Sequence record: PZ583742.1
Length of the DNA stretch: 64,000 bases
Direction: 5' to 3' (one strand)
From: a phage
A model generated the notes under the pieces. That model ran no database searches. It saw only the letters and a list, made by a program, of their open reading frames with translations, and was not told the DNA's origin. Position numbers and translations under genes: made by a program. Of the stretch, positions 1,720 to 44,186 are shown in pieces; the stretch's first letter is position 1; each line of letters starts with the position of its first letter.

Positions 1720-1979
1720 GACTTTATGATTTTAATGAAGCGGGTCTTGAACATATCCGCGAATGTGCTGTGGTTGACGACGATAATCAACCGAATACTA
1801 TTAAGTATTGGTTTGAAGCTATCACTGACCGGGAAACTGGTCAACTTATCAAAGTCTATGTAGTCACCGATTGGGCCGTGGAATTTAGCTTTAATGTAAT
1901 GGAAGATGATACTCCAGAGACATTAATTCATATGGCTGAATCATGCATCAAGGATGCTTATTATGATGAAGACTTTTGA
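1716..1979 (+). CDS. hypothetical acidic protein (87 aa)
   Basis: GTG start overlapping gp47 stop; fills gap between 47 and 46. Confidence 0.35.
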   Translation: MRLYDFNEAGLEHIRECAVVDDDNQPNTIKYWFEAITDRETGQLIKVYVVTDWAVEFSFNVMEDDTPETLIHMAESCIKDAYYDEDF

Positions 1980-2172
1980 ATTTAATCTTGATGATGAATT
2001 TGTAGCAAATATTGATTATACCGAAGAAGATTCTAGATATGTCGGAATAATTTATATCACATCAAAAACGGCGCAGGGAGTGGTTTGCATGGCTGAATTT
2101 GATGAATGCTTTTTAGATTATGATGATATGATAGAATGGTCTAAAAGATACATTAAAAGGAATCTTTTGTGA
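1963..2172 (+). CDS. hypothetical acidic protein (69 aa)
   Basis: ATG with AAGGA upstream; stop overlaps gp46 start. Confidence 0.35.
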   Translation: MMKTFEFNLDDEFVANIDYTEEDSRYVGIIYITSKTAQGVVCMAEFDECFLDYDDMIEWSKRYIKRNLL

Positions 2173-3851
2173 AGACTTTTAAGCTTAAGAAAGTTATCTA
2201 TAAAAATATTATGTCGGTTGGTGCTCAACCGATTACTGTTGAACTGGATAAAGTCCAAAAAACTCTGGTCACCGGCAAGAATGGTGCGGGTAAATCTACG
2301 TTCCTTGAAGCGGTTACCTTTGCTATGTTCGGTAAGCCTTTCCGTGATGTAAAGAAAGGCCAGTTGATTAACTCGAGCAACAAAAAAGATATGCTCGTTG
2401 AATTGTGGATGGAATATGATGGAAAAGAATACTATATCAAACGCGGGCAAAAACCCAATGTTTTTGAAATCTCTTGTGGCGGTAAACGTCTTGATGAATC
2501 TGCCAGCAGTAAAGACTTCCAAGCGGAATTTGAACAGCTCATCGGAATGTCCTATGCAAGCTTCAAACAGATTGTCGTACTCGGCACAGCTGGATATACC
2601 CCTTTTATGGGCCTATCCACTCCTGCAAGAAGAAAACTTGTCGAAGACCTTTTAGAGGTTTCTGTACTGGCCGATATGGATAAGCTGAACAAATCTCTTA
2701 TCCGCGAAGTCAATAGTCAAATCCAGGTGATGGATGTGCAGCATGACGGGATTGTTCAACAGATTAAAATCTATCAGGACAACGAAGACCGTCAAAGAAA
2801 ATTATCAGGTGATAATCTGTTGCGGCTGCAAACGATGTATGATGAACTTGCCACAGAAGCACGTGGAATCAAGACAACTATCGAAGAAGCAACAACAAGA
2901 CTGACCGAGATAATCTTGGGAGAAGACCCTGAGCATGAACTCACGAAGCTAAAGCAGGAATCATTTCTGATTAAGTCGAAGATAGACGATTACCGAAAGG
3001 TTGTTGGTCTGTACGAGAAAGGTGGTTGTTGTCAGACTTGTGCCAGTCAGTTGCATCCAGGAGACCCTATTGTCGCCAGGATTGAGTCAAAGATTGAAGA
3101 ATGTAATGCATCAGCTGATAAGCATAAAGCTCGCCAGAATGCTGTTCAAGAGCAATTTGATACGTATTCTGCTGCAAGACAAAACCAGCGTACAATAGCC
3201 CAAGACATTCAAACTAAGAAACAAACCTTAATCCAGACTGTTGAAAAGGCTAAAAAGGTTAAAGCATTAATCGAGCAAGCTAAGTCAGAATTCATTGACC
3301 ATGCAGCAGACATTAAAATGCTTCAAGACCAGCTTGATAAAATAGTCAAACAGAAATCTGACCTTGTGATGGAAAAATATCAACGTGGCATCCTAACGGA
3401 TATGTTGAAAGATTCCGGTATCAAAGGCGCGATTATTAAGAAATATATTCCTATCTTTAATAAGCAGATAAACGCTTACCTTAAAGTTATGGAAGCTGAT
3501 TATAGCTTTACGTTAGATGAAGAGTTCAACGAAACTATTAAATCTCGTGGACGTGAAGACTTCAGCTATGCATCATTTAGCCAGGGTGAAAAAGCTCGTA
3601 TCGATATTGCATTGCTGTTTACATGGCGTGATATTGCTGCGAAAGTATCTGGTGTTAATATTAACACCTTGATTCTGGATGAAGTTTTTGACTCGGCCAC
3701 TGATGTAGAGGGTGTTAAAGCAATTGCTACCATCCTGAACAAATTGGAAGACACCAACATCTTTATTATCAGTCACCGAGACCATGACCCGGAAGCATAC
3801 GGGCAACATCTCCAGATGAAAAAAGTTGGTCGATTCACTGTTATGGAATAA
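2169..3851 (+). CDS. 46: recombination endonuclease subunit gp46 (Rad50/SbcC-like ATPase)
   Basis: Walker A GKNGAGKST, central coiled coil with CxxC zinc hook, Walker B LILDEVFD; 560 aa; GTG start. Confidence 0.95.
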   Translation: MKTFKLKKVIYKNIMSVGAQPITVELDKVQKTLVTGKNGAGKSTFLEAVTFAMFGKPFRDVKKGQLINSSNKKDMLVELWMEYDGKEYYIKRGQKPNVFEISCGGKRLDESASSKDFQAEFEQLIGMSYASFKQIVVLGTAGYTPFMGLSTPARRKLVEDLLEVSVLADMDKLNKSLIREVNSQIQVMDVQHDGIVQQIKIYQDNEDRQRKLSGDNLLRLQTMYDELATEARGIKTTIEEATTRLTEIILGEDPEHELTKLKQESFLIKSKIDDYRKVVGLYEKGGCCQTCASQLHPGDPIVARIESKIEECNASADKHKARQNAVQEQFDTYSAARQNQRTIAQDIQTKKQTLIQTVEKAKKVKALIEQAKSEFIDHAADIKMLQDQLDKIVKQKSDLVMEKYQRGILTDMLKDSGIKGAIIKKYIPIFNKQINAYLKVMEADYSFTLDEEFNETIKSRGREDFSYASFSQGEKARIDIALLFTWRDIAAKVSGVNINTLILDEVFDSATDVEGVKAIATILNKLEDTNIFIISHRDHDPEAYGQHLQMKKVGRFTVME

Positions 3852-4101: not shown

Positions 4102-4509
4102 ATGAACAACGTAACTGCTAAAGATATCCAAGTTAAAACCATCCGCACCGACGCTAACCCACACAACCAAAACCGCATCCGCAAATCCTGGGTCCTGGCA
4201 TGTGATGAAGCATCTGCTGCCCGTCTGCAGTCTCTGCCGCAAGAAATTAAATTCATGCTGTACGGTGTGATTGATACTGATGTATCTGATAAGTGGATTG
4301 AACTGATGCGTAATCACTACAACGATTCACTGGCTGCTGGTGCTAAACTGGTTATCGACCGTGACGGTTCCGAACGTCTCGAAGATGATTACTGTGTTGA
4401 CTTCGACGACCACCTGGTCCAAGCTGGTTCTATTATTGCTGCGCAACTTCCAGAGTATATTGAATCTCTTCCGGAAGCTATCCGCAAACAAATGGCAGTT
4501 GTTGCGTGA
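4102..4509 (+). CDS. RpbA-like protein (by position between 46 and 45 and by size)
   Basis: 135-aa ORF with strongly biased codon use; start choice (4084 vs 4102) uncertain. Confidence 0.4.
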   Translation: MNNVTAKDIQVKTIRTDANPHNQNRIRKSWVLACDEASAARLQSLPQEIKFMLYGVIDTDVSDKWIELMRNHYNDSLAAGAKLVIDRDGSERLEDDYCVDFDDHLVQAGSIIAAQLPEYIESLPEAIRKQMAVVA

Positions 4510-5393
4510 ATTTGATTTATAAAATAACCTTTATAACAAGGGAACAAAATAATGAATTCCCTTGTTATTATATTGGTTCAAAGGTTGATACGACATTTAA
4601 TGGCCAAAATATTCTCGATAAAAATAATAAAATTTATACAGGTTCTCCGAATTCAAAATATACTACGCTGTATAATGAATTAATTGATAGCGGTGACTAT
4701 ATTGTTACTATCATTGGGGAAACAAAACAGGACCCAAGGAAAATAGAAAATATTTTTCAAATGTCAGTTAAAGCTGTAACCAATGAGAAATACTTTAATA
4801 AAACGTATGCACACGACAAAAGCCGCTATGATGCTCCTGGATATGCTCCATACCGAAACTTGAAAACGGGTAAAGTTGTTAAATTACATCCATCTGAACT
4901 TACATCTGATTATGTTGGTGTTCGTAAAGATTGTTCAATTTCAGATAAGCACATTCAAGCAATTAAAGACTTCCAAAAAGAATATTGGACTGACGAAGCT
5001 CGACAAGCAAGGTCTGTTGAAGTCAAAAATCGTTATAAAGATGTTGAGTATGCTTTAAAATTCAAAGCTATAATGAATACATCTGAAGTATATGAAAAAT
5101 ATTTAAAATCAATTACTGAATATTGGAATAATTCAGATAATAGAATAAAGGCTTCAAAACGAGCAACCGAACGAAATGCCAACCCTGAATTTAAAGAAAA
5201 ATTTAGGAAATCTAAAGCAAGAGGAACCTGGTTACAGTATGAAGATGAACTTAAAGCATTGTGGAATGCTTTAGGCCAACCAGGGTATATTAAGTTTAGA
5301 AAACACGCCATTGAACATGGGTTTAATGATGAAAACTATCAGGGTGCAATCCGGTCCTGGTCAAATTATTATGTTAATAGGAAAATGAAATGA
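4506..5393 (+). CDS. GIY-YIG-like homing endonuclease (Seg-like), free-standing
   Basis: N-terminal LIYKITF...CYYIGSK motif pair; AT-rich ORF wedged between conserved genes; GTG start. Confidence 0.5.
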   Translation: MNLIYKITFITREQNNEFPCYYIGSKVDTTFNGQNILDKNNKIYTGSPNSKYTTLYNELIDSGDYIVTIIGETKQDPRKIENIFQMSVKAVTNEKYFNKTYAHDKSRYDAPGYAPYRNLKTGKVVKLHPSELTSDYVGVRKDCSISDKHIQAIKDFQKEYWTDEARQARSVEVKNRYKDVEYALKFKAIMNTSEVYEKYLKSITEYWNNSDNRIKASKRATERNANPEFKEKFRKSKARGTWLQYEDELKALWNALGQPGYIKFRKHAIEHGFNDENYQGAIRSWSNYYVNRKMK

Positions 5394-12385: not shown

Positions 12386-13564
12386 ATGTCTATTGCAGAT
12401 TTGAAATCCCGTTTGATTAAAGCTTCTACATCCAAAATGACCGCGACTCTTACCAAGTCCAAGTTTTTTAATGATAAAGATGTAGTTCGTACAAAAATCC
12501 CGATGCTGAACATTGCAATCAGCGGTGCACTAGATGGTGGTATGCAGTCAGGTTTGACTATTTTTGCTGGTCCGTCAAAACACTTTAAATCCAATATGGG
12601 TTTAACGATGGTCTCTGCATATATGAACAAATACCCCGATGCAATCTGTTTGTTCTATGATTCAGAATTTGGTATCACAGAAGCCTATCTTCGTGCAATG
12701 AAAGTTGACCCGGAACGTGTTATCCACACACCAATCCAGTCGGTTGAACAATTGAAAGTTGATATGGTTAACCAGCTTGAAGCAATTGAGCGTGGTGAAA
12801 AAGTCATTATCTTTATTGACTCAATCGGTAACATGGCATCGAAAAAAGAAACAGAAGATGCGATGAACGAAAAAGTCGTTGGCGATATGACTCGTGCTAA
12901 ATCCCTGAAATCTCTGTTCCGTATTGTTACCCCGTATTTTAGTATCAAGGATATTCCTTGTGTCGCGGTTAACCATACAATCGAGACGATTGAGATGTAT
13001 AGCAAAACCGTTATGACCGGTGGCACAGGTGTTATGTATTCCGCGGACACCGTATTCATTATCGGCAAACGTCAGATTAAAGAAACTGGTAAAGAACTTG
13101 AAGGCTTCCAATTTGTTCTGAACGCCGAAAAATCTCGTATGGTCAAAGAGAAAAGTAAATTCTTCATTGATGTAAAATTCGATGGCGGTATTGACCCGTA
13201 TTCTGGCCTGCTTGATATGGCAATGGAAATCGGATTTGTGGTGAAACCAAAAGTTGGTTGGTATAACCGTGAATATCTTGATGTTGAGACCGGTGAAATG
13301 GTCCGCGAAGAAAAATCATGGCGCGCAAAAGATACTAACTGCACCGAATTCTGGGGCCCATTGTTCAAACACGAACCTTTCCGTGACGCAATCAAACGCC
13401 ATTACCAACTGGGTGCAATCGATAGCAATGCTGTTGTTGATGCCGAAGTTGATGCGCTTATTGCCTCCAAGGTTGAAAAATACACTGCTCCTGAAGGTAA
13501 GACAAAACCGTCTGCTGCAGATATTGAAAACGATTTAGATATGATGGAAGACCTTGATGAATGA
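12386..13564 (+). CDS. uvsX: recombinase UvsX (RecA-like)
   Basis: Walker A GPSKHFKS; 392 aa; close to T4 UvsX throughout. Confidence 0.95.
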   Translation: MSIADLKSRLIKASTSKMTATLTKSKFFNDKDVVRTKIPMLNIAISGALDGGMQSGLTIFAGPSKHFKSNMGLTMVSAYMNKYPDAICLFYDSEFGITEAYLRAMKVDPERVIHTPIQSVEQLKVDMVNQLEAIERGEKVIIFIDSIGNMASKKETEDAMNEKVVGDMTRAKSLKSLFRIVTPYFSIKDIPCVAVNHTIETIEMYSKTVMTGGTGVMYSADTVFIIGKRQIKETGKELEGFQFVLNAEKSRMVKEKSKFFIDVKFDGGIDPYSGLLDMAMEIGFVVKPKVGWYNREYLDVETGEMVREEKSWRAKDTNCTEFWGPLFKHEPFRDAIKRHYQLGAIDSNAVVDAEVDALIASKVEKYTAPEGKTKPSAADIENDLDMMEDLDE

Positions 13565-13898
13565 TATCGATTTATCTGATTTAGATAATTTCGAGAAAGA
13601 TGCGGAGGGAGCTAAGGCTCCTTCTGTACCTTACTACGAAAAAAGTTTGGAGATTATCCGGCAATCCATGGGAACTGTACGACAGGAAATTCTGTTATCA
13701 CTCCCTGATGGGTCCAGTCACATTGTGTACGTAACCGGAATTAAAATTGAACCATCTGGAAAAGTTTCAGTTGATTTCGGCACCCCTTCTGAAGACCGCA
13801 AAGCGGAGCTTGCAGTGCATGTAGAAAAGTGTGTTACAATGCAAATACAAGATGAAATTGATAAGATTAAAATGAAAAAGAGGTGGTGGAAGTGGTAG
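13557..13898 (+). CDS. 40: gp40-like head vertex assembly chaperone
   Basis: 113-aa ORF between uvsX and gene 41, size and position as T4 gene 40. Confidence 0.55.
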   Translation: MNDIDLSDLDNFEKDAEGAKAPSVPYYEKSLEIIRQSMGTVRQEILLSLPDGSSHIVYVTGIKIEPSGKVSVDFGTPSEDRKAELAVHVEKCVTMQIQDEIDKIKMKKRWWKW

Positions 13899-15322
13899 AA
13901 ACTATTTTATCCCAGCTACTCTTTAACAAGGAATATTTTGTTAAAGTCTGGCCATATCTGAATAATACATATTTTGAAAAGGGTCCTGCAAAGACCCTTT
14001 TTAATACGATTAACGAACACGTAAAAGAATATCAAGCGGTACCAACTAAGACTGCACTTGATATCGCGCTCGACAGTTCTGACCTTTCTGAAGTCGAATA
14101 TGAAGGCACAAAGAAACTCTTAGGAGTCCTGGCCGATACTCCAGAAGACCAGGAATGGTTGGTTAAAGAAACCGAGAAGTATGTACAGAAGTCTGCGATG
14201 TTCAATGCCACATCCAGGATTATCGAAATCCAGAGTAATGCCGAACTTCCGAAAGATAAACGTGATAAACGAATCCCGGATATTGGTGCTATCACCGACA
14301 TCATGCGCGATGCATTGTCTATCTGTTTTGACTCTGCTCTGGGCCATGACTGGTTAAACGATTACGAAGCTCGATTCCAGACTTATCTGAACAAATCGAA
14401 GAAGGTTCCGTTCCGTATTAACATCCTGAATAAAATCACAAAGGGTGGGGTTGAGTACGGTACAGAGAACGTTTTACTGGCTGGGACAAACGTCGGCAAA
14501 TCCCTTGGACTTTGTTCGTTAGCGGCTGACTATCTTCAGACTGGTCATAACGTGCTTTATATAAGCATGGAAATGGCTGAAGAAGTATGTGCCAAACGTA
14601 TTGATGCCAACTTGCTGGATGTATCTCTGGATGATATTGATGAAGGTCATGTGTCATGGGCAGAATACAAAAGTAAGATGGAAAAATGGCGCGCAGCCGG
14701 GACTCTTGGGACTCTGAAGATAAAACAATATCCAACTGGTGGTGCTCATGCGGATACCTTCCGTGCATTATTGAATGAATACAAACTGAAACAAGGGTTT
14801 GTGCCGGATGTGATTATTGTTGACTACCTGGCAATCTGTGCAAGCTCAAGATTGAAAACGTTTACCGAAAACAGTTACGGCCTGATTAAAATGGTTGCAG
14901 AAGAACTTCGTGGCCTGGCGGTCGAGAAAAATGTGGTCCTGTGGACTGCAGCACAGACAACCAGGGGCGCGAACGTTGCAGCTGAGATTGATATGGCTGA
15001 CATTGCAGAATCCTTTGGTATTGCTCACACGGCCGATTTTATGTTGGGTGTTGTTGAGACTGAAGAATTCGCTCAAATGGGTCTGCAGTTAATCAAACAG
15101 CTTAAGTCTCGTTATGGTGATAAGAACTACTATAATAAATTCAAGATGGGTGTTAAGAAAGGTAATCAGCGCTGGTATGAGGTTGATGATGATTCGGCTC
15201 CTAAACAAGGCCCTACGGTTAAAGAAGCCACTGGTGAGATGAATCGCCAGGCTGAAATGAATAGACAAACCAGGGTCAACAGGAGCGACCTGGACGACCT
15301 TGCTGCTCAAATGAAATTCTAA
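13892..15322 (+). CDS. 41: replicative DNA helicase gp41 (DnaB-like)
   Basis: Walker A GTNVGKS; MVETILSQLLF aligns with the T4 gp41 N-terminus; GTG start 6 nt after GAGGTGG. Confidence 0.95.
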   Translation: MVETILSQLLFNKEYFVKVWPYLNNTYFEKGPAKTLFNTINEHVKEYQAVPTKTALDIALDSSDLSEVEYEGTKKLLGVLADTPEDQEWLVKETEKYVQKSAMFNATSRIIEIQSNAELPKDKRDKRIPDIGAITDIMRDALSICFDSALGHDWLNDYEARFQTYLNKSKKVPFRINILNKITKGGVEYGTENVLLAGTNVGKSLGLCSLAADYLQTGHNVLYISMEMAEEVCAKRIDANLLDVSLDDIDEGHVSWAEYKSKMEKWRAAGTLGTLKIKQYPTGGAHADTFRALLNEYKLKQGFVPDVIIVDYLAICASSRLKTFTENSYGLIKMVAEELRGLAVEKNVVLWTAAQTTRGANVAAEIDMADIAESFGIAHTADFMLGVVETEEFAQMGLQLIKQLKSRYGDKNYYNKFKMGVKKGNQRWYEVDDDSAPKQGPTVKEATGEMNRQAEMNRQTRVNRSDLDDLAAQMKF

Positions 15323-31329: not shown

Positions 31330-31353
31330 GCTTTAAAATATGTGACTTATAAT
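31329..31353 (+). promoter_or_regulatory. MotA-box middle promoter candidate
   Basis: TGCTTTA 31329-31335, TATAAT 31348-31353. Confidence 0.45.
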
Positions 31354-31359
31354 ACCTCC

Positions 31360-32067
31360 ATGAACTTAAAACAATTTATTGAAGAAAATCTTTTAACTAA
31401 GAACCCGAATCGTCTTAACGGTAATTTGTTCAAAAATGATTTAGAATTTGCCAAGAAATTCTGGGAAAAATATCCAGAAGAAGCAAATGTCTTTAGAACA
31501 GAAGCACTGCATTGTCAAGGAGGTAAAAGAGACCAACATCCGTACAATGAGGTCTGCTACCGTATTTTACATGATATAAAAGGAAAAGTCTTATGTAAGT
31601 GTGGTAAACCTGTTAACTATCATACATTTGCTACTGGCTACCATGAATTTTGTTCCGTTAAATGTCAGGGTGGTGGTATATTTGAAGAAGAGCGTATTTG
31701 TCCTGTTTGCGATACTAAGTATATGGCTACGAATAGGACTCAAAAATATTGTTCAGATTCCTGTGGTAAAGAAGCAAGAGATACTCAATCACTGGACTTG
31801 CCATATAGTCATTCCATAAAGATGAAAAAGCGCGACGTTTTGAAGTTAATTGAGGATACTCCGTATTGTGAAATTTGTAAAATAAAACTAACAAACAATT
31901 CGACTTCTTTATCAAAAAGCACTTGGTTCAATGTAGACCATTGCCACTCGACTGGTAAAGTCCGAGGTATTTTATGTTCAAAATGCAACATAGGCCTAGG
32001 AATGTTTAAAGACAATATTGCTTCATTAGAAACTGCGATAGAATACTTGAAACAAAGCAAGGAATAA
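31360..32067 (+). CDS. endonuclease VII-like His-Me finger nuclease with N-terminal zinc fingers (putative homing endonuclease)
   Basis: C-terminal DHCHSTGKVRGILCSKCNIGLG; several Cys pairs; first ATG (31360) near the predicted transcript start, so start uncertain. Confidence 0.55.
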   Translation: MNLKQFIEENLLTKNPNRLNGNLFKNDLEFAKKFWEKYPEEANVFRTEALHCQGGKRDQHPYNEVCYRILHDIKGKVLCKCGKPVNYHTFATGYHEFCSVKCQGGGIFEEERICPVCDTKYMATNRTQKYCSDSCGKEARDTQSLDLPYSHSIKMKKRDVLKLIEDTPYCEICKIKLTNNSTSLSKSTWFNVDHCHSTGKVRGILCSKCNIGLGMFKDNIASLETAIEYLKQSKE

Positions 32068-41769: not shown

Positions 41770-43149
41770 ATGTCTGACGTTTTAAGTATGATGTCCAAAC
41801 AGTTCAGTGATTCCGTGGGGACCCTTAACCCACGCAGTCTAAAAGACATTATTGATGTGGAAGCATTGTCATATGCTATCTACACTGTGGAAGGTCGTGC
41901 CATCCCAAACATGATTGATGGTTTTAAACCAGTTCACAGATTTGTTATGGCGAGAGCATTAGACCTGGCTCGTGGTGATAAGAATAAATTCCATAAGGTT
42001 GCATCCATCGCAGGTGGCGTAGCTGATTATGGTTATCACCATGGCGAAGCATCAGCGGAAGAAGCAACTTCTGGTCTGGTCGCAACATATAAAAATGAAT
42101 ACCCCATGTTTGATGGACAAGGCAACTTTGGTTCCAGAATGGTGCCAGAAGCATCATCAGCTCGTTATGTATTCGCAAGGGTTTCAAAGAACTTTTATAA
42201 CTTGTTTAAGGATACAGAATATGCTCCGGTCCATCCTGATGAAGAACATAAGCCTCCTGCTTTTTATCTTCCTGTTATTCCTACTGTATTACTTAACGCC
42301 ACTTCTGGGATTGCTGTTGGCTTCGCTACTGATATACTTCCTCATTCGTTCCAGGACGTCAAGGAAGCTGTTAAAGCTATCGTGGAAGGTCGTGAGCCGG
42401 TTGCTCCGAAAGTAAAATATCCAGAATTCCGCGGTGAAGTTGTTGAGCTGGAAGAGCCTGGTAAGTATGAGCTTCATGGCACATACAAAATGACTTCCCG
42501 GACTCAAATGGAAATTACTGAAATCCCGGTCCAATGGAACCTGGAAAAATATACAAGTAAAATACTTGACCCGCTGGAAGAGAAAGGTTTTATCACCTGG
42601 AAAGATAACTGCGGTGAACATGGTTTTGGGTTTAAGATTAAATTCCGCAAAGAATACAAGTTGGATGGCACTGAAGAAGAGAATCATGAGAAAATCATGA
42701 AAGACTTTGGTCTGATTGAGAAACTCTCCCAGAACTTAACTGTGCTTAATCACAAAGGCAAATTAGCTGAATACACCAACACGCTTGACCTGATTCGCGA
42801 TTTCGTGGATGTCCGTAAGACCTATGTTCAAGTGCGAATTGACAGCAAGATTAAAGAAACTGAAGCGGCATTTAAACTGGCCCGTGCGAAAGTCTTCTTT
42901 ATTAAAGAAGTGATTGATGGTAAGGTTATTATCCAGGGGAAACCTCGTAAGAAGTTGATTGAGGAACTCCAGGCGAGTGAAATATATGGCGATTATGCAG
43001 AGAAGTTAGTGGCGATGAACATCTACCATATGACCTCTGATGAAGCCAAGAAGCTTGCAGACGAAGCAAAGGCTAAGAAAGCTGAGCATGAGTACTGGAA
43101 GACAACTGATGTTAAAACTGAATACCTTAATGATTTGGAGGCTCTATGA
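41770..43149 (+). CDS. 52: DNA topoisomerase II medium subunit gp52 (GyrA-like)
   Basis: AIPNMIDGFKPVHRFVMARALDL and C-terminal EYWKTTDV match T4 gp52; 459 aa. Confidence 0.92.
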   Translation: MSDVLSMMSKQFSDSVGTLNPRSLKDIIDVEALSYAIYTVEGRAIPNMIDGFKPVHRFVMARALDLARGDKNKFHKVASIAGGVADYGYHHGEASAEEATSGLVATYKNEYPMFDGQGNFGSRMVPEASSARYVFARVSKNFYNLFKDTEYAPVHPDEEHKPPAFYLPVIPTVLLNATSGIAVGFATDILPHSFQDVKEAVKAIVEGREPVAPKVKYPEFRGEVVELEEPGKYELHGTYKMTSRTQMEITEIPVQWNLEKYTSKILDPLEEKGFITWKDNCGEHGFGFKIKFRKEYKLDGTEEENHEKIMKDFGLIEKLSQNLTVLNHKGKLAEYTNTLDLIRDFVDVRKTYVQVRIDSKIKETEAAFKLARAKVFFIKEVIDGKVIIQGKPRKKLIEELQASEIYGDYAEKLVAMNIYHMTSDEAKKLADEAKAKKAEHEYWKTTDVKTEYLNDLEAL

Positions 43150-43244
43150 GTTTTGGAGTTGAGTTTGCATTGCTTTGTATTTTCGCGGCAATCGCAGGTG
43201 TGATTGTTGGTATGTTTATTGGTAATAAGATAGATAAAGACTAG
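43146..43244 (+). CDS. small hydrophobic peptide (32 aa)
   Basis: ATGA overlap with gp52 stop. Confidence 0.3.
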   Translation: MSFGVEFALLCIFAAIAGVIVGMFIGNKIDKD

Positions 43245-43265
43245 GACCCTTCGGGGTCCTTTTTT
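43243..43265 (+). terminator. intrinsic terminator (UUCG tetraloop)
   Basis: AGGACCC-TTCG-GGGTCCT then TTTTT. Confidence 0.6.
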
Positions 43266-43281: not shown

Positions 43282-43310
43282 TGTACAATCCCCTTGACCC
43301 GCTGCATAAT
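43282..43310 (+). promoter_or_regulatory. early sigma70 promoter
   Basis: TGTACA 43282-43287, 17-nt spacer, CATAAT 43305-43310. Confidence 0.55.
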
Positions 43311-43359
43311 GATTCCATACTGAGTTACACAATGAATCACAAAAACTTTGGAGAATAAA

Positions 43360-43575
43360 ATGTTTACTGCACAACAGAATGAAGGTCAAGAATACATTAA
43401 CGCTAAATTCAAATCTAATAAAGAAGCTTGTTATTACTACTTTGACATGTTCAAACTGGCAAACTCTAAAGAAGAACGTAAACAAGCGATTGATGTGATT
43501 GTTTCTACTTCCCATATGAAACGTACTGTGGTACAATCATATGCATCAAATTATATGAAATCTATTAAGGGATAA
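43360..43575 (+). CDS. hypothetical protein (71 aa)
   Basis: GGAGAATAAA then ATG. Confidence 0.4.
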   Translation: MFTAQQNEGQEYINAKFKSNKEACYYYFDMFKLANSKEERKQAIDVIVSTSHMKRTVVQSYASNYMKSIKG

Positions 43576-43577
43576 TT

Positions 43578-44186
43578 GTGAACAAGTTAAATTATATCGT
43601 TAAATGCTCCCAGAACGCTCTACATGAGACTGATGTTAATGCTCTGGTGTTTGTATACAAAAACAACTTTGTGAGTCCAGAAGTTGTTTTAGACCAGCAG
43701 AACACATCAATTGATAGTGTACAGACATTGTTGAATAACAACTATGTTGAAGCTTCCGGTGATGGTTTGATGGTTACAGAAAAAGGTGTTGACCTTATTC
43801 TGGATGCAGCAGAATTGTGGGCGAATGAAAATAATCCCGACCTTCTGGAAGTGAAGAAGACAAGAACAAAACGCGGTGTGACTGATGAAATGGAAGCGAC
43901 TGCAGAATATATCAAAGAGCAATTATTGTCTATTGGTATTGACTTTAAGAGCATTTCAGAAGACCGCAGCAATCTGATTGTGAAGTTCAAGCGTATCAAG
44001 ACATTAAAACAGATTGATGTACGTCGTGATGGTCAGATTCGTGTGCATGCGTATAATACTGAACAAAAGATAGTAAAACAGTTTACAGACGTGGGATTTA
44101 GCGTTAAAGTAGGTGGATTGAATACCTACATTGACAATCATATGTCAACTGAAAACATTCAACATGTTATTAACATCTTAAAGTGA
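43578..44186 (+). CDS. motA: middle-transcription activator MotA
   Basis: ASGDGLMVTEKG and C-terminal VKQFTDVGFSVKV...TENIQHVINIL match T4 MotA; GTG start. Confidence 0.8.
   Translation: MNKLNYIVKCSQNALHETDVNALVFVYKNNFVSPEVVLDQQNTSIDSVQTLLNNNYVEASGDGLMVTEKGVDLILDAAELWANENNPDLLEVKKTRTKRGVTDEMEATAEYIKEQLLSIGIDFKSISEDRSNLIVKFKRIKTLKQIDVRRDGQIRVHAYNTEQKIVKQFTDVGFSVKVGGLNTYIDNHMSTENIQHVINILK

Follow-up and report, generated by a model that had tools for sequence, protein, structure and literature searches.

GTG start codons of genes 46, 41 and motA in the early-gene region of a Gaprivervirus phage

Three core genes of a T4-type phage, encoding a recombination nuclease subunit (gene 46), the replicative helicase (gene 41) and a transcription activator (motA), appear to begin with GTG in a stretch of 64,000 nt taken from sequence record PZ583742.1 (hereafter the window), raising the question of whether these codons are genuine initiation sites and what such starts may do. 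The original prediction, made from the letters and a list of open reading frames (ORFs), placed each GTG directly after an upstream stop codon and considered this arrangement consistent with translational coupling that limits initiation of the three genes.

In megablast searches of a phage collection, three parts of the window showed 95-99% identity with Escherichia, Shigella and Yersinia phages (VR20, SP18, P479, vB_YenM_P8 and others), and the window is the early/middle-gene region of a Gaprivervirus, a T4-type phage of the Straboviridae (Tevenvirinae). Its + strand carries the order 47, 46.2, 46.1, 46, 45.2, rpbA, 45, 44, 62, regA, 43 … uvsX, 40, 41 … 39, rIIA, rIIB … 52, motA. Orthology of gp41, gp46 and MotA to the T4-type proteins is indicated by full-length homology together with kept gene order (47-46.2-46.1-46; uvsX-40-41; 52 … motA-arn.4).

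The three GTG starts were borne out (Table 1). With these starts, the coding sequences measure 1683 (46), 1431 (41) and 609 nt (motA), the lengths annotated in VR20, SP18 and P479, and the annotated starts of P479, when mapped onto the window, fall on exactly these three GTG codons; the start annotations in these relatives are themselves predictions. A Shine-Dalgarno sequence lies 3-6 nt before each mapped GTG start, with energies that can be compared with a median of -6.1 kcal/mol among 78 mapped starts. For all three genes, the same codon is ATG in some relatives.

Table 1. Coordinates of the start codons, coding sequences and associated elements in the window.
Feature	Position	Strand	Basis or remark
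Gene 46.2, 87 aa	1716..1979	+	starts with GTG 1716-1718; full-length match to phrog_2192
Gene 46.1, 68 aa, phrog_2327, function unassigned	1966..2172	+	starts with ATG; TGA stop 2170-2172
Gene 46 Shine-Dalgarno-like AAAGGAA	2156..2162	+	6 nt before GTG; -5.6 kcal/mol
Gene 46 start codon	GTG 2169..2171	+	same start annotated in VR20, SP18, P479 and T4
Gene 46 CDS, 560 aa, Rad50/SbcC-like recombination nuclease subunit	2169..3851	+	ORF list
Gene 40 CDS	13557..13898	+	TAG stop 13896-13898
Gene 41 Shine-Dalgarno GAGGTGGTG	13880..13888	+	3 nt before GTG; -10.5 kcal/mol, second strongest of 78
Gene 41 start codon	GTG 13892..13894	+	aligns with annotated T4 GTG at 22039
Gene 41 CDS, 476 aa, replicative helicase	13892..15322	+	ORF list
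Small membrane ORF, next after gene 52	43146..43244		
Terminator-like hairpin with T-run	43243-43260	+	consensus scan
Promoter-like TTGACC-16-CATACT, upstream of the 71-aa ORF	43294-43321	+	consensus match; number of promoter matches equals shuffle expectation
71-aa ORF, function unassigned, lineage-specific	43360..43575	+	full-length match to phrog_17275
motA Shine-Dalgarno-like TTAAGGGA	43565..43572	+	5 nt before GTG; -5.2 kcal/mol
motA start codon	GTG 43578..43580	+	annotated start in P479, SP18 and VR20
motA CDS, 202 aa, transcription activator	43578..44186	+	ORF list

Since the ORF list extends each frame mechanically to the first ATG, GTG or TTG, the GTG codons might be artefacts of the longest reading frame, with the true starts at a downstream ATG or, in gene 41, where three in-frame GTGs lie within 12 nt, at an upstream GTG. 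Protein structure speaks against the downstream codons. In the gene 46 frame, the GTG is the earliest canonical start past the upstream stop, and the next in-frame ATG is at 2211 (codon 15); since gp46 can be aligned over residues 5-186 with Pyrococcus Rad50 structures (residues 2-185), a start there would remove a conserved N-terminal strand. The whole of gp41 (1-476) aligns with the T4 helicase in 8dtp (residues 1-475), and the first 90 codons of the gene are free of in-frame ATG. In motA, the in-frame TAA at 43566-43568 is followed by no canonical start before the GTG, ATG first appears in frame at codon 65 (43770), and the protein aligns over residues 1-200 with T4 MotA in 6k4y (residues 1-207). 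As the alignments begin at residue 1 (gp41, MotA) or 5 (gp46), a downstream start would cut into conserved structure, and downstream ATG starts were rejected for all three genes on the grounds that conserved N-termini would be truncated. The ATG codons of relatives, moreover, fall exactly on the proposed positions.

The upstream candidates of gene 41 fare no better. The Shine-Dalgarno stretch GAGGTGGTG itself contains two unused in-frame GTGs (13883 and 13886), which lie in the Shine-Dalgarno motif or 2 nt past it; they were rejected on this spacing and on their absence in T4-type contexts. The choice of 13892, which had been made by aligning the N-terminus with that of T4, stands up: it coincides with the T4 start, is the third of the three GTGs and the only one at a workable distance from GAGGTG, and is the codon at which one IMG/VR locus (L089) has ATG. 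T4 shares the uvsX-40-41 order, the N-terminus MVE(I/T)IL, the GTG GTA GAA start (reading GTG GTA GAA ATT from 22039) and a GGAG/GAGG Shine-Dalgarno. It is therefore highly improbable that the true starts lie elsewhere, and, as far as sequence comparison goes, all three GTG codons are the best-supported starts and genuine GUG initiation codons.

Such starts are neither enriched nor unusual in this region, as a survey of 78 early-region starts, projected onto the window from the P479 annotation, indicates: GTG was found in four of the 78 (46.2, 46, 41 and motA) and ATG in the remaining 74, and in the homologous region of T4 GTG begins 5 of 87 annotated coding sequences (mobA, dexA.2, 41, 46 and 46.1). 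The fourth GTG start of the window, that of 46.2, was absent from the original prediction. It forms GTGA with the TGA that ends gene 47 (1717-1719), is preceded by GAGGTGC (GAGGTG at 1705-1710; -9.2 kcal/mol), a Shine-Dalgarno among the strongest of the mapped set, and is annotated alike in VR20, SP18 and P479. Five further GTG or TTG starts in the ORF list (673, 17143, 25980, 32068 and 61302) were set aside as mechanical extensions, since ATG is the start that mapping or family matches support there.

The use of GTG in these genes is already on record, as the T4 reference annotates it for 46 and 41 (with gene 46 beginning at GTG 34984 and making a GTGA junction with 46.1) and annotated Gaprivervirus genomes share the motA GTG. 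In the literature search, the only direct statement on a start codon concerned T4 gene 41, whose ORF begins with GUG and for which GUG and AUG reporter versions of the ribosome site have been built (Hinton laboratory, 2025; PMC12152347). The search returned nothing relevant on T4 gp46 with GTG, on motA start codons of T4-like phages or on start codons of VR7, and no paper documenting the gp46 N-terminus was found. For annotators and gene callers, the practical consequence is that, in this phage group, 46, 46.2, 41 and motA should be left with their GTG starts; beyond correct annotation, the finding of GTG as such matters little.

The proposed coupling is a separate matter. The description of each GTG as lying directly after the upstream stop applies only to motA, which starts 2 nt after the TAA (43573-43575) of the 71-aa ORF. 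The gene 46 GTG instead overlaps the stop of its upstream gene, which is 46.1 and not 47, as GTGA (2169-2172), and gene 41 begins before gene 40 ends, with an overlap of 7 nt and the TAG 4 nt past the first base of the GTG. The resulting stop-to-start distances of -4 (46), -7 (41) and +2 nt (motA) are real and have the overlap or close spacing of stop and start expected of coupled pairs. Equally tight packing (within 5 nt of, or overlapping, the upstream stop) nevertheless occurs in 32 of the 73 ATG-start genes (44%), and the enrichment among the GTG genes, all four of which are tightly packed, is marginal (one-sided Fisher p = 0.044).

Under a strict form of coupling, the GUG starts would be poor on their own and would be served mainly by ribosomes that have just terminated upstream, so that upstream translation limits output. 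The distances and the packing of the four GTG genes agree with such an arrangement, as do the overlap at gene 46, which is retained in most lineages, and the loss of a private promoter and leader from motA in Gaprivervirus. Tight packing is nonetheless common among ATG genes too, and the downstream sites are neither weak nor masked: a Shine-Dalgarno is present at each, those of 41 and 46.2 ranking among the strongest, and in the four GTG start regions (80 nt each) no fold was better than that of shuffled sequence (z -1.2 to +0.6). The idea of masked ribosome sites was consequently dropped, since nothing in the folding suggests a ribosome site so masked that it would have to rely on translation of the upstream gene. 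T4, moreover, retains GUG at gene 41 with gene 40 ending 9 nt upstream, ahead of the Shine-Dalgarno. As gene 46 likewise keeps its overlap with either ATG or GTG, start codon and geometry vary independently. Strict coupling therefore appears unlikely; termination-reinitiation is physically possible in these arrangements, yet unspecific to the GTG genes. Ribosomes finishing the upstream gene may add to initiation at sites that each seem equipped for independent initiation as well.

Whether the GUG codons carry meaning of their own was approached by comparing the same codons across related phages. If ATG and GTG were simply interchangeable and their alternation neutral drift, GTG would have no regulatory meaning. 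For gene 41, the comparison comprised 45 sequences (the window, T4 and 43 IMG/VR loci), grouped into 19 lineages by a 90% nucleotide-identity threshold applied to the first 240 nt. Of the 45, 41 start with GTG, three with ATG (L089, L078 and L080) and one with TTG (L081), and GTG occurs in 16 of the 19 lineages; in nearly all lineages, GAGGT or GGAG stands a few bases before the start. To see whether inheritance alone could explain the G, 28 third-codon positions at which A and G are synonymous were taken from the first 100 codons of the gene; their mean G fraction was 0.18 and none exceeded 0.53, compared with 0.84 for the start codon. Drift is hard to reconcile with this excess, all the more so because mutation bias and initiation efficiency both favour a change from G to A. 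For the same reason, the pattern suggests that the gene 41 GTG is kept by selection for a weak start, although the 19 lineages are not phylogenetically independent and the comparison involves no formal test. The natural ATG (L089) and TTG (L081) variants indicate that GUG is not obligatory at this gene.

The gene 40-41 junction differs from that of T4 in one further respect. Gene 40 is extended in the window (…KRWWKW) and overlaps 41, and this tryptophan-rich C-terminal extension also occurs in Gaprivervirus and Dhakavirus-type loci (L050-L057, L085 and L087). The AGAGGTGGTGGAAGTGGTAG stretch (window 13860-13898) encodes the extension and at the same time supplies the Shine-Dalgarno and start of gene 41.

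Gene 46 behaves differently, and it is here, together with motA, that neutral drift finds its support. Across loci, ATG was found 27 times and GTG 13 times; among 20 lineages the counts were 14 and 6, near the background G fraction. Most lineages keep the NTGA overlap, which is formed with the TGA of a 46.1-like gene or of gene 47 itself, depending on lineage. Conservation thus extends to the overlap but not to the first base of the start codon.

The switch between GTG and ATG at gene 46 in Gaprivervirus has a mechanical origin. The starts of 46.1 (1966-1977) and 46 (2169-2180) have an 11-nt direct repeat, TGAAGACTTTT, in common, the contexts being …TTATG ATG AAGACTTTT GAA and …CTTTT GTG AAGACTTTT AAG, respectively. 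In SP18, VR25 and VR26, 46.1 is missing and gene 46 starts with ATG; in these phages (SP18, L002 1427-1505), the upstream region and ATG of 46.1 are joined to the body of gene 46 inside the repeat. Judged by their sequence, the phages without 46.1 are the exact product expected of recombination between the two repeat copies, in which the loss of 46.1 places its ATG on gene 46.

T4 resembles the window in the GTGA overlap between 46 and 46.1 and in the CDS length of 1683 nt. The start codons of the small genes are reversed: 46.1 starts with GTG and 46.2 with ATG in T4, whereas 46.2 has GTG and 46.1 ATG in the window. The last 40 nt of 46.1 (window 2129-2168) are 100% identical to T4 (L003 34985-35024, minus strand), and gp46 is only about 70-75% identical between the window phage and T4-type phages. 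This 40-nt identity suggests either strong constraint at this position or a recent exchange of the 46.1 segment.

For motA, a single scan of IMG/VR with the MotA protein yielded three close loci only, and the comparison was then extended by tblastn to a phage collection and eight other genera. The gene starts with ATG in nine other genera, namely Tequatrovirus (T4), Tegunavirus, Dhakavirus, Kanagawavirus, Mosigvirus, Muldoonvirus, Jiaodavirus, Roskildevirus and Biquartavirus, in which GGAG precedes the ATG and a conserved early-promoter-like GTTTAC…TATTATAG lies about 65 nt upstream. The window MotA is 33-43% identical to the MotA of other genera. Within Gaprivervirus, exact 30-mer searches, in which the start-codon base was forced into every seed, assigned GTG to 18 distinct phages (21 records) and ATG, lying at that same codon, to five (8 records), namely VR7, VR25, VR26, TH15 and CJ20. 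Among the genera compared, GTG was seen only in Gaprivervirus. The start is polymorphic inside this one genus at >95% identity, as neutral drift would allow. Taken with the opposing pattern at gene 41, drift without regulatory meaning remains a doubtful account of the GTG starts.

The motA neighbourhood offers a difference of another kind. T4 motA is a full-length homologue and shares the setting of gene 52, small membrane ORF, terminator, motA and arn.4. In T4, motA is the first gene behind its own early promoter, with ATG, GGAG and a roughly 65-nt leader; in the window, the 71-aa ORF intervenes and the start is GTG. This ORF has no counterpart directly upstream of motA in the nine other genera. 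An equivalence with the small ORFs lying before the motA promoter in other genera was rejected, as no similarity to them was found. It also matches C-terminal parts of the longer families phrog_9997 and phrog_18416. The promoter-like match before it may be a promoter, judging from its position and the equivalent T4 arrangement. In Gaprivervirus, motA appears to have become a second cistron behind the 71-aa ORF, most members then carrying GTG, and the rearrangement is a small example of an early regulatory gene changing its expression context.

What the GUG codons could do at these genes can be considered in light of work on initiation in Escherichia coli. They would be read by initiator tRNA as formyl-methionine, and those of 46 and 41 are probably inherited from an ancestor common with T4. 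In vitro, mRNAs that begin with GUG show lower activity and are weak competitors of AUG mRNAs, a handicap that is strongest at low temperature, under nutrient limitation and in the presence of ppGpp (PMC5499595). By analogy, if initiation at the three genes is limited, the limit more plausibly lies in the GUG codon itself than in coupling. The simplest reading, drawn from these general E. coli data, is that GUG lowers output. At gene 46 and motA, where the first base of the start codon appears to drift between A and G, any effect would probably be close to neutral or no more than a slight adjustment of expression. At gene 41, the likeliest role of GUG combined with a strong Shine-Dalgarno would be to hold helicase synthesis at a set, lower level, and the codon may also make that synthesis more sensitive to initiation conditions.

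A regulatory use of rare start codons is exemplified by the AUU start of E. coli infC. GUG, by comparison, is a common start codon, and we know of no autoregulatory loop for gp41, gp46 or MotA, nor is one indicated, unlike the situation at regulatory rare starts. The likeness to those starts is that a non-AUG codon weakens initiation and adds dependence on initiation factors and growth conditions (PMC5499595).

Taken together, the evidence makes it very probable that the three codons are genuine GUG starts, inherited in the case of 46 and 41 from the ancestor shared with T4, apparently selected at 41 and probably near-neutral or mildly tuning at 46 and motA, with upstream ribosomes possibly contributing. 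A more ambitious proposal, in which the gene 41 GUG is a selected device of the Tevenvirinae that caps helicase synthesis or links it to the state of the cell, and in which Gaprivervirus motA has been rewired from an ATG gene next to its promoter into a GUG-initiated second cistron, can be put forward only tentatively. Should it be true, the gene 41 GUG, always combined with a strong Shine-Dalgarno, would set a ceiling on helicase synthesis or make it depend on the physiological state of the host, non-AUG starts being more sensitive to temperature, nutrient limitation and ppGpp, and a new 71-aa leader gene feeding a GUG motA would change the dosing of the master activator of middle genes. The conservation of a weak helicase start across T4-type phages, against a strong A/T bias, is the point with some biological content, and it provides a testable hypothesis of helicase dosing.

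Some other ORFs of the region bear on start annotation. The ORF at 31342-32067, before gene 39, encodes an Endonuclease VII domain (PF02945, residues 171-237), and its start is likely ATG 31360, not the listed GTG 31342; the corresponding place in P479 is occupied by another, longer gene. P479 also annotates a segF homing-endonuclease gene with a GTG start (L005 20948); the window is without segF, and its matching position, 21395, reads GAG. A 295-aa ORF between rpbA and 45 (window 4506-5393) can start only at GTG 4506, which overlaps the rpbA stop, or at TTG 4512, and there is no clear Shine-Dalgarno before the start. GTG 4506 is likely a fifth GTG start, absent from the original prediction. 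Homing-endonuclease genes (segF, T4 mobA and the 4506 ORF) seem over-represented among the GTG starts of these phages. The first 103 residues of the 4506 ORF match the N-terminal half of the homing-endonuclease family phrog_7504, and in VR26 the annotated product comprises just the C-terminal 210 aa, beginning at the ATG at window 4761. That annotation probably cuts the protein short; in relatives, the homing-endonuclease ORF following rpbA is probably longer than annotated.
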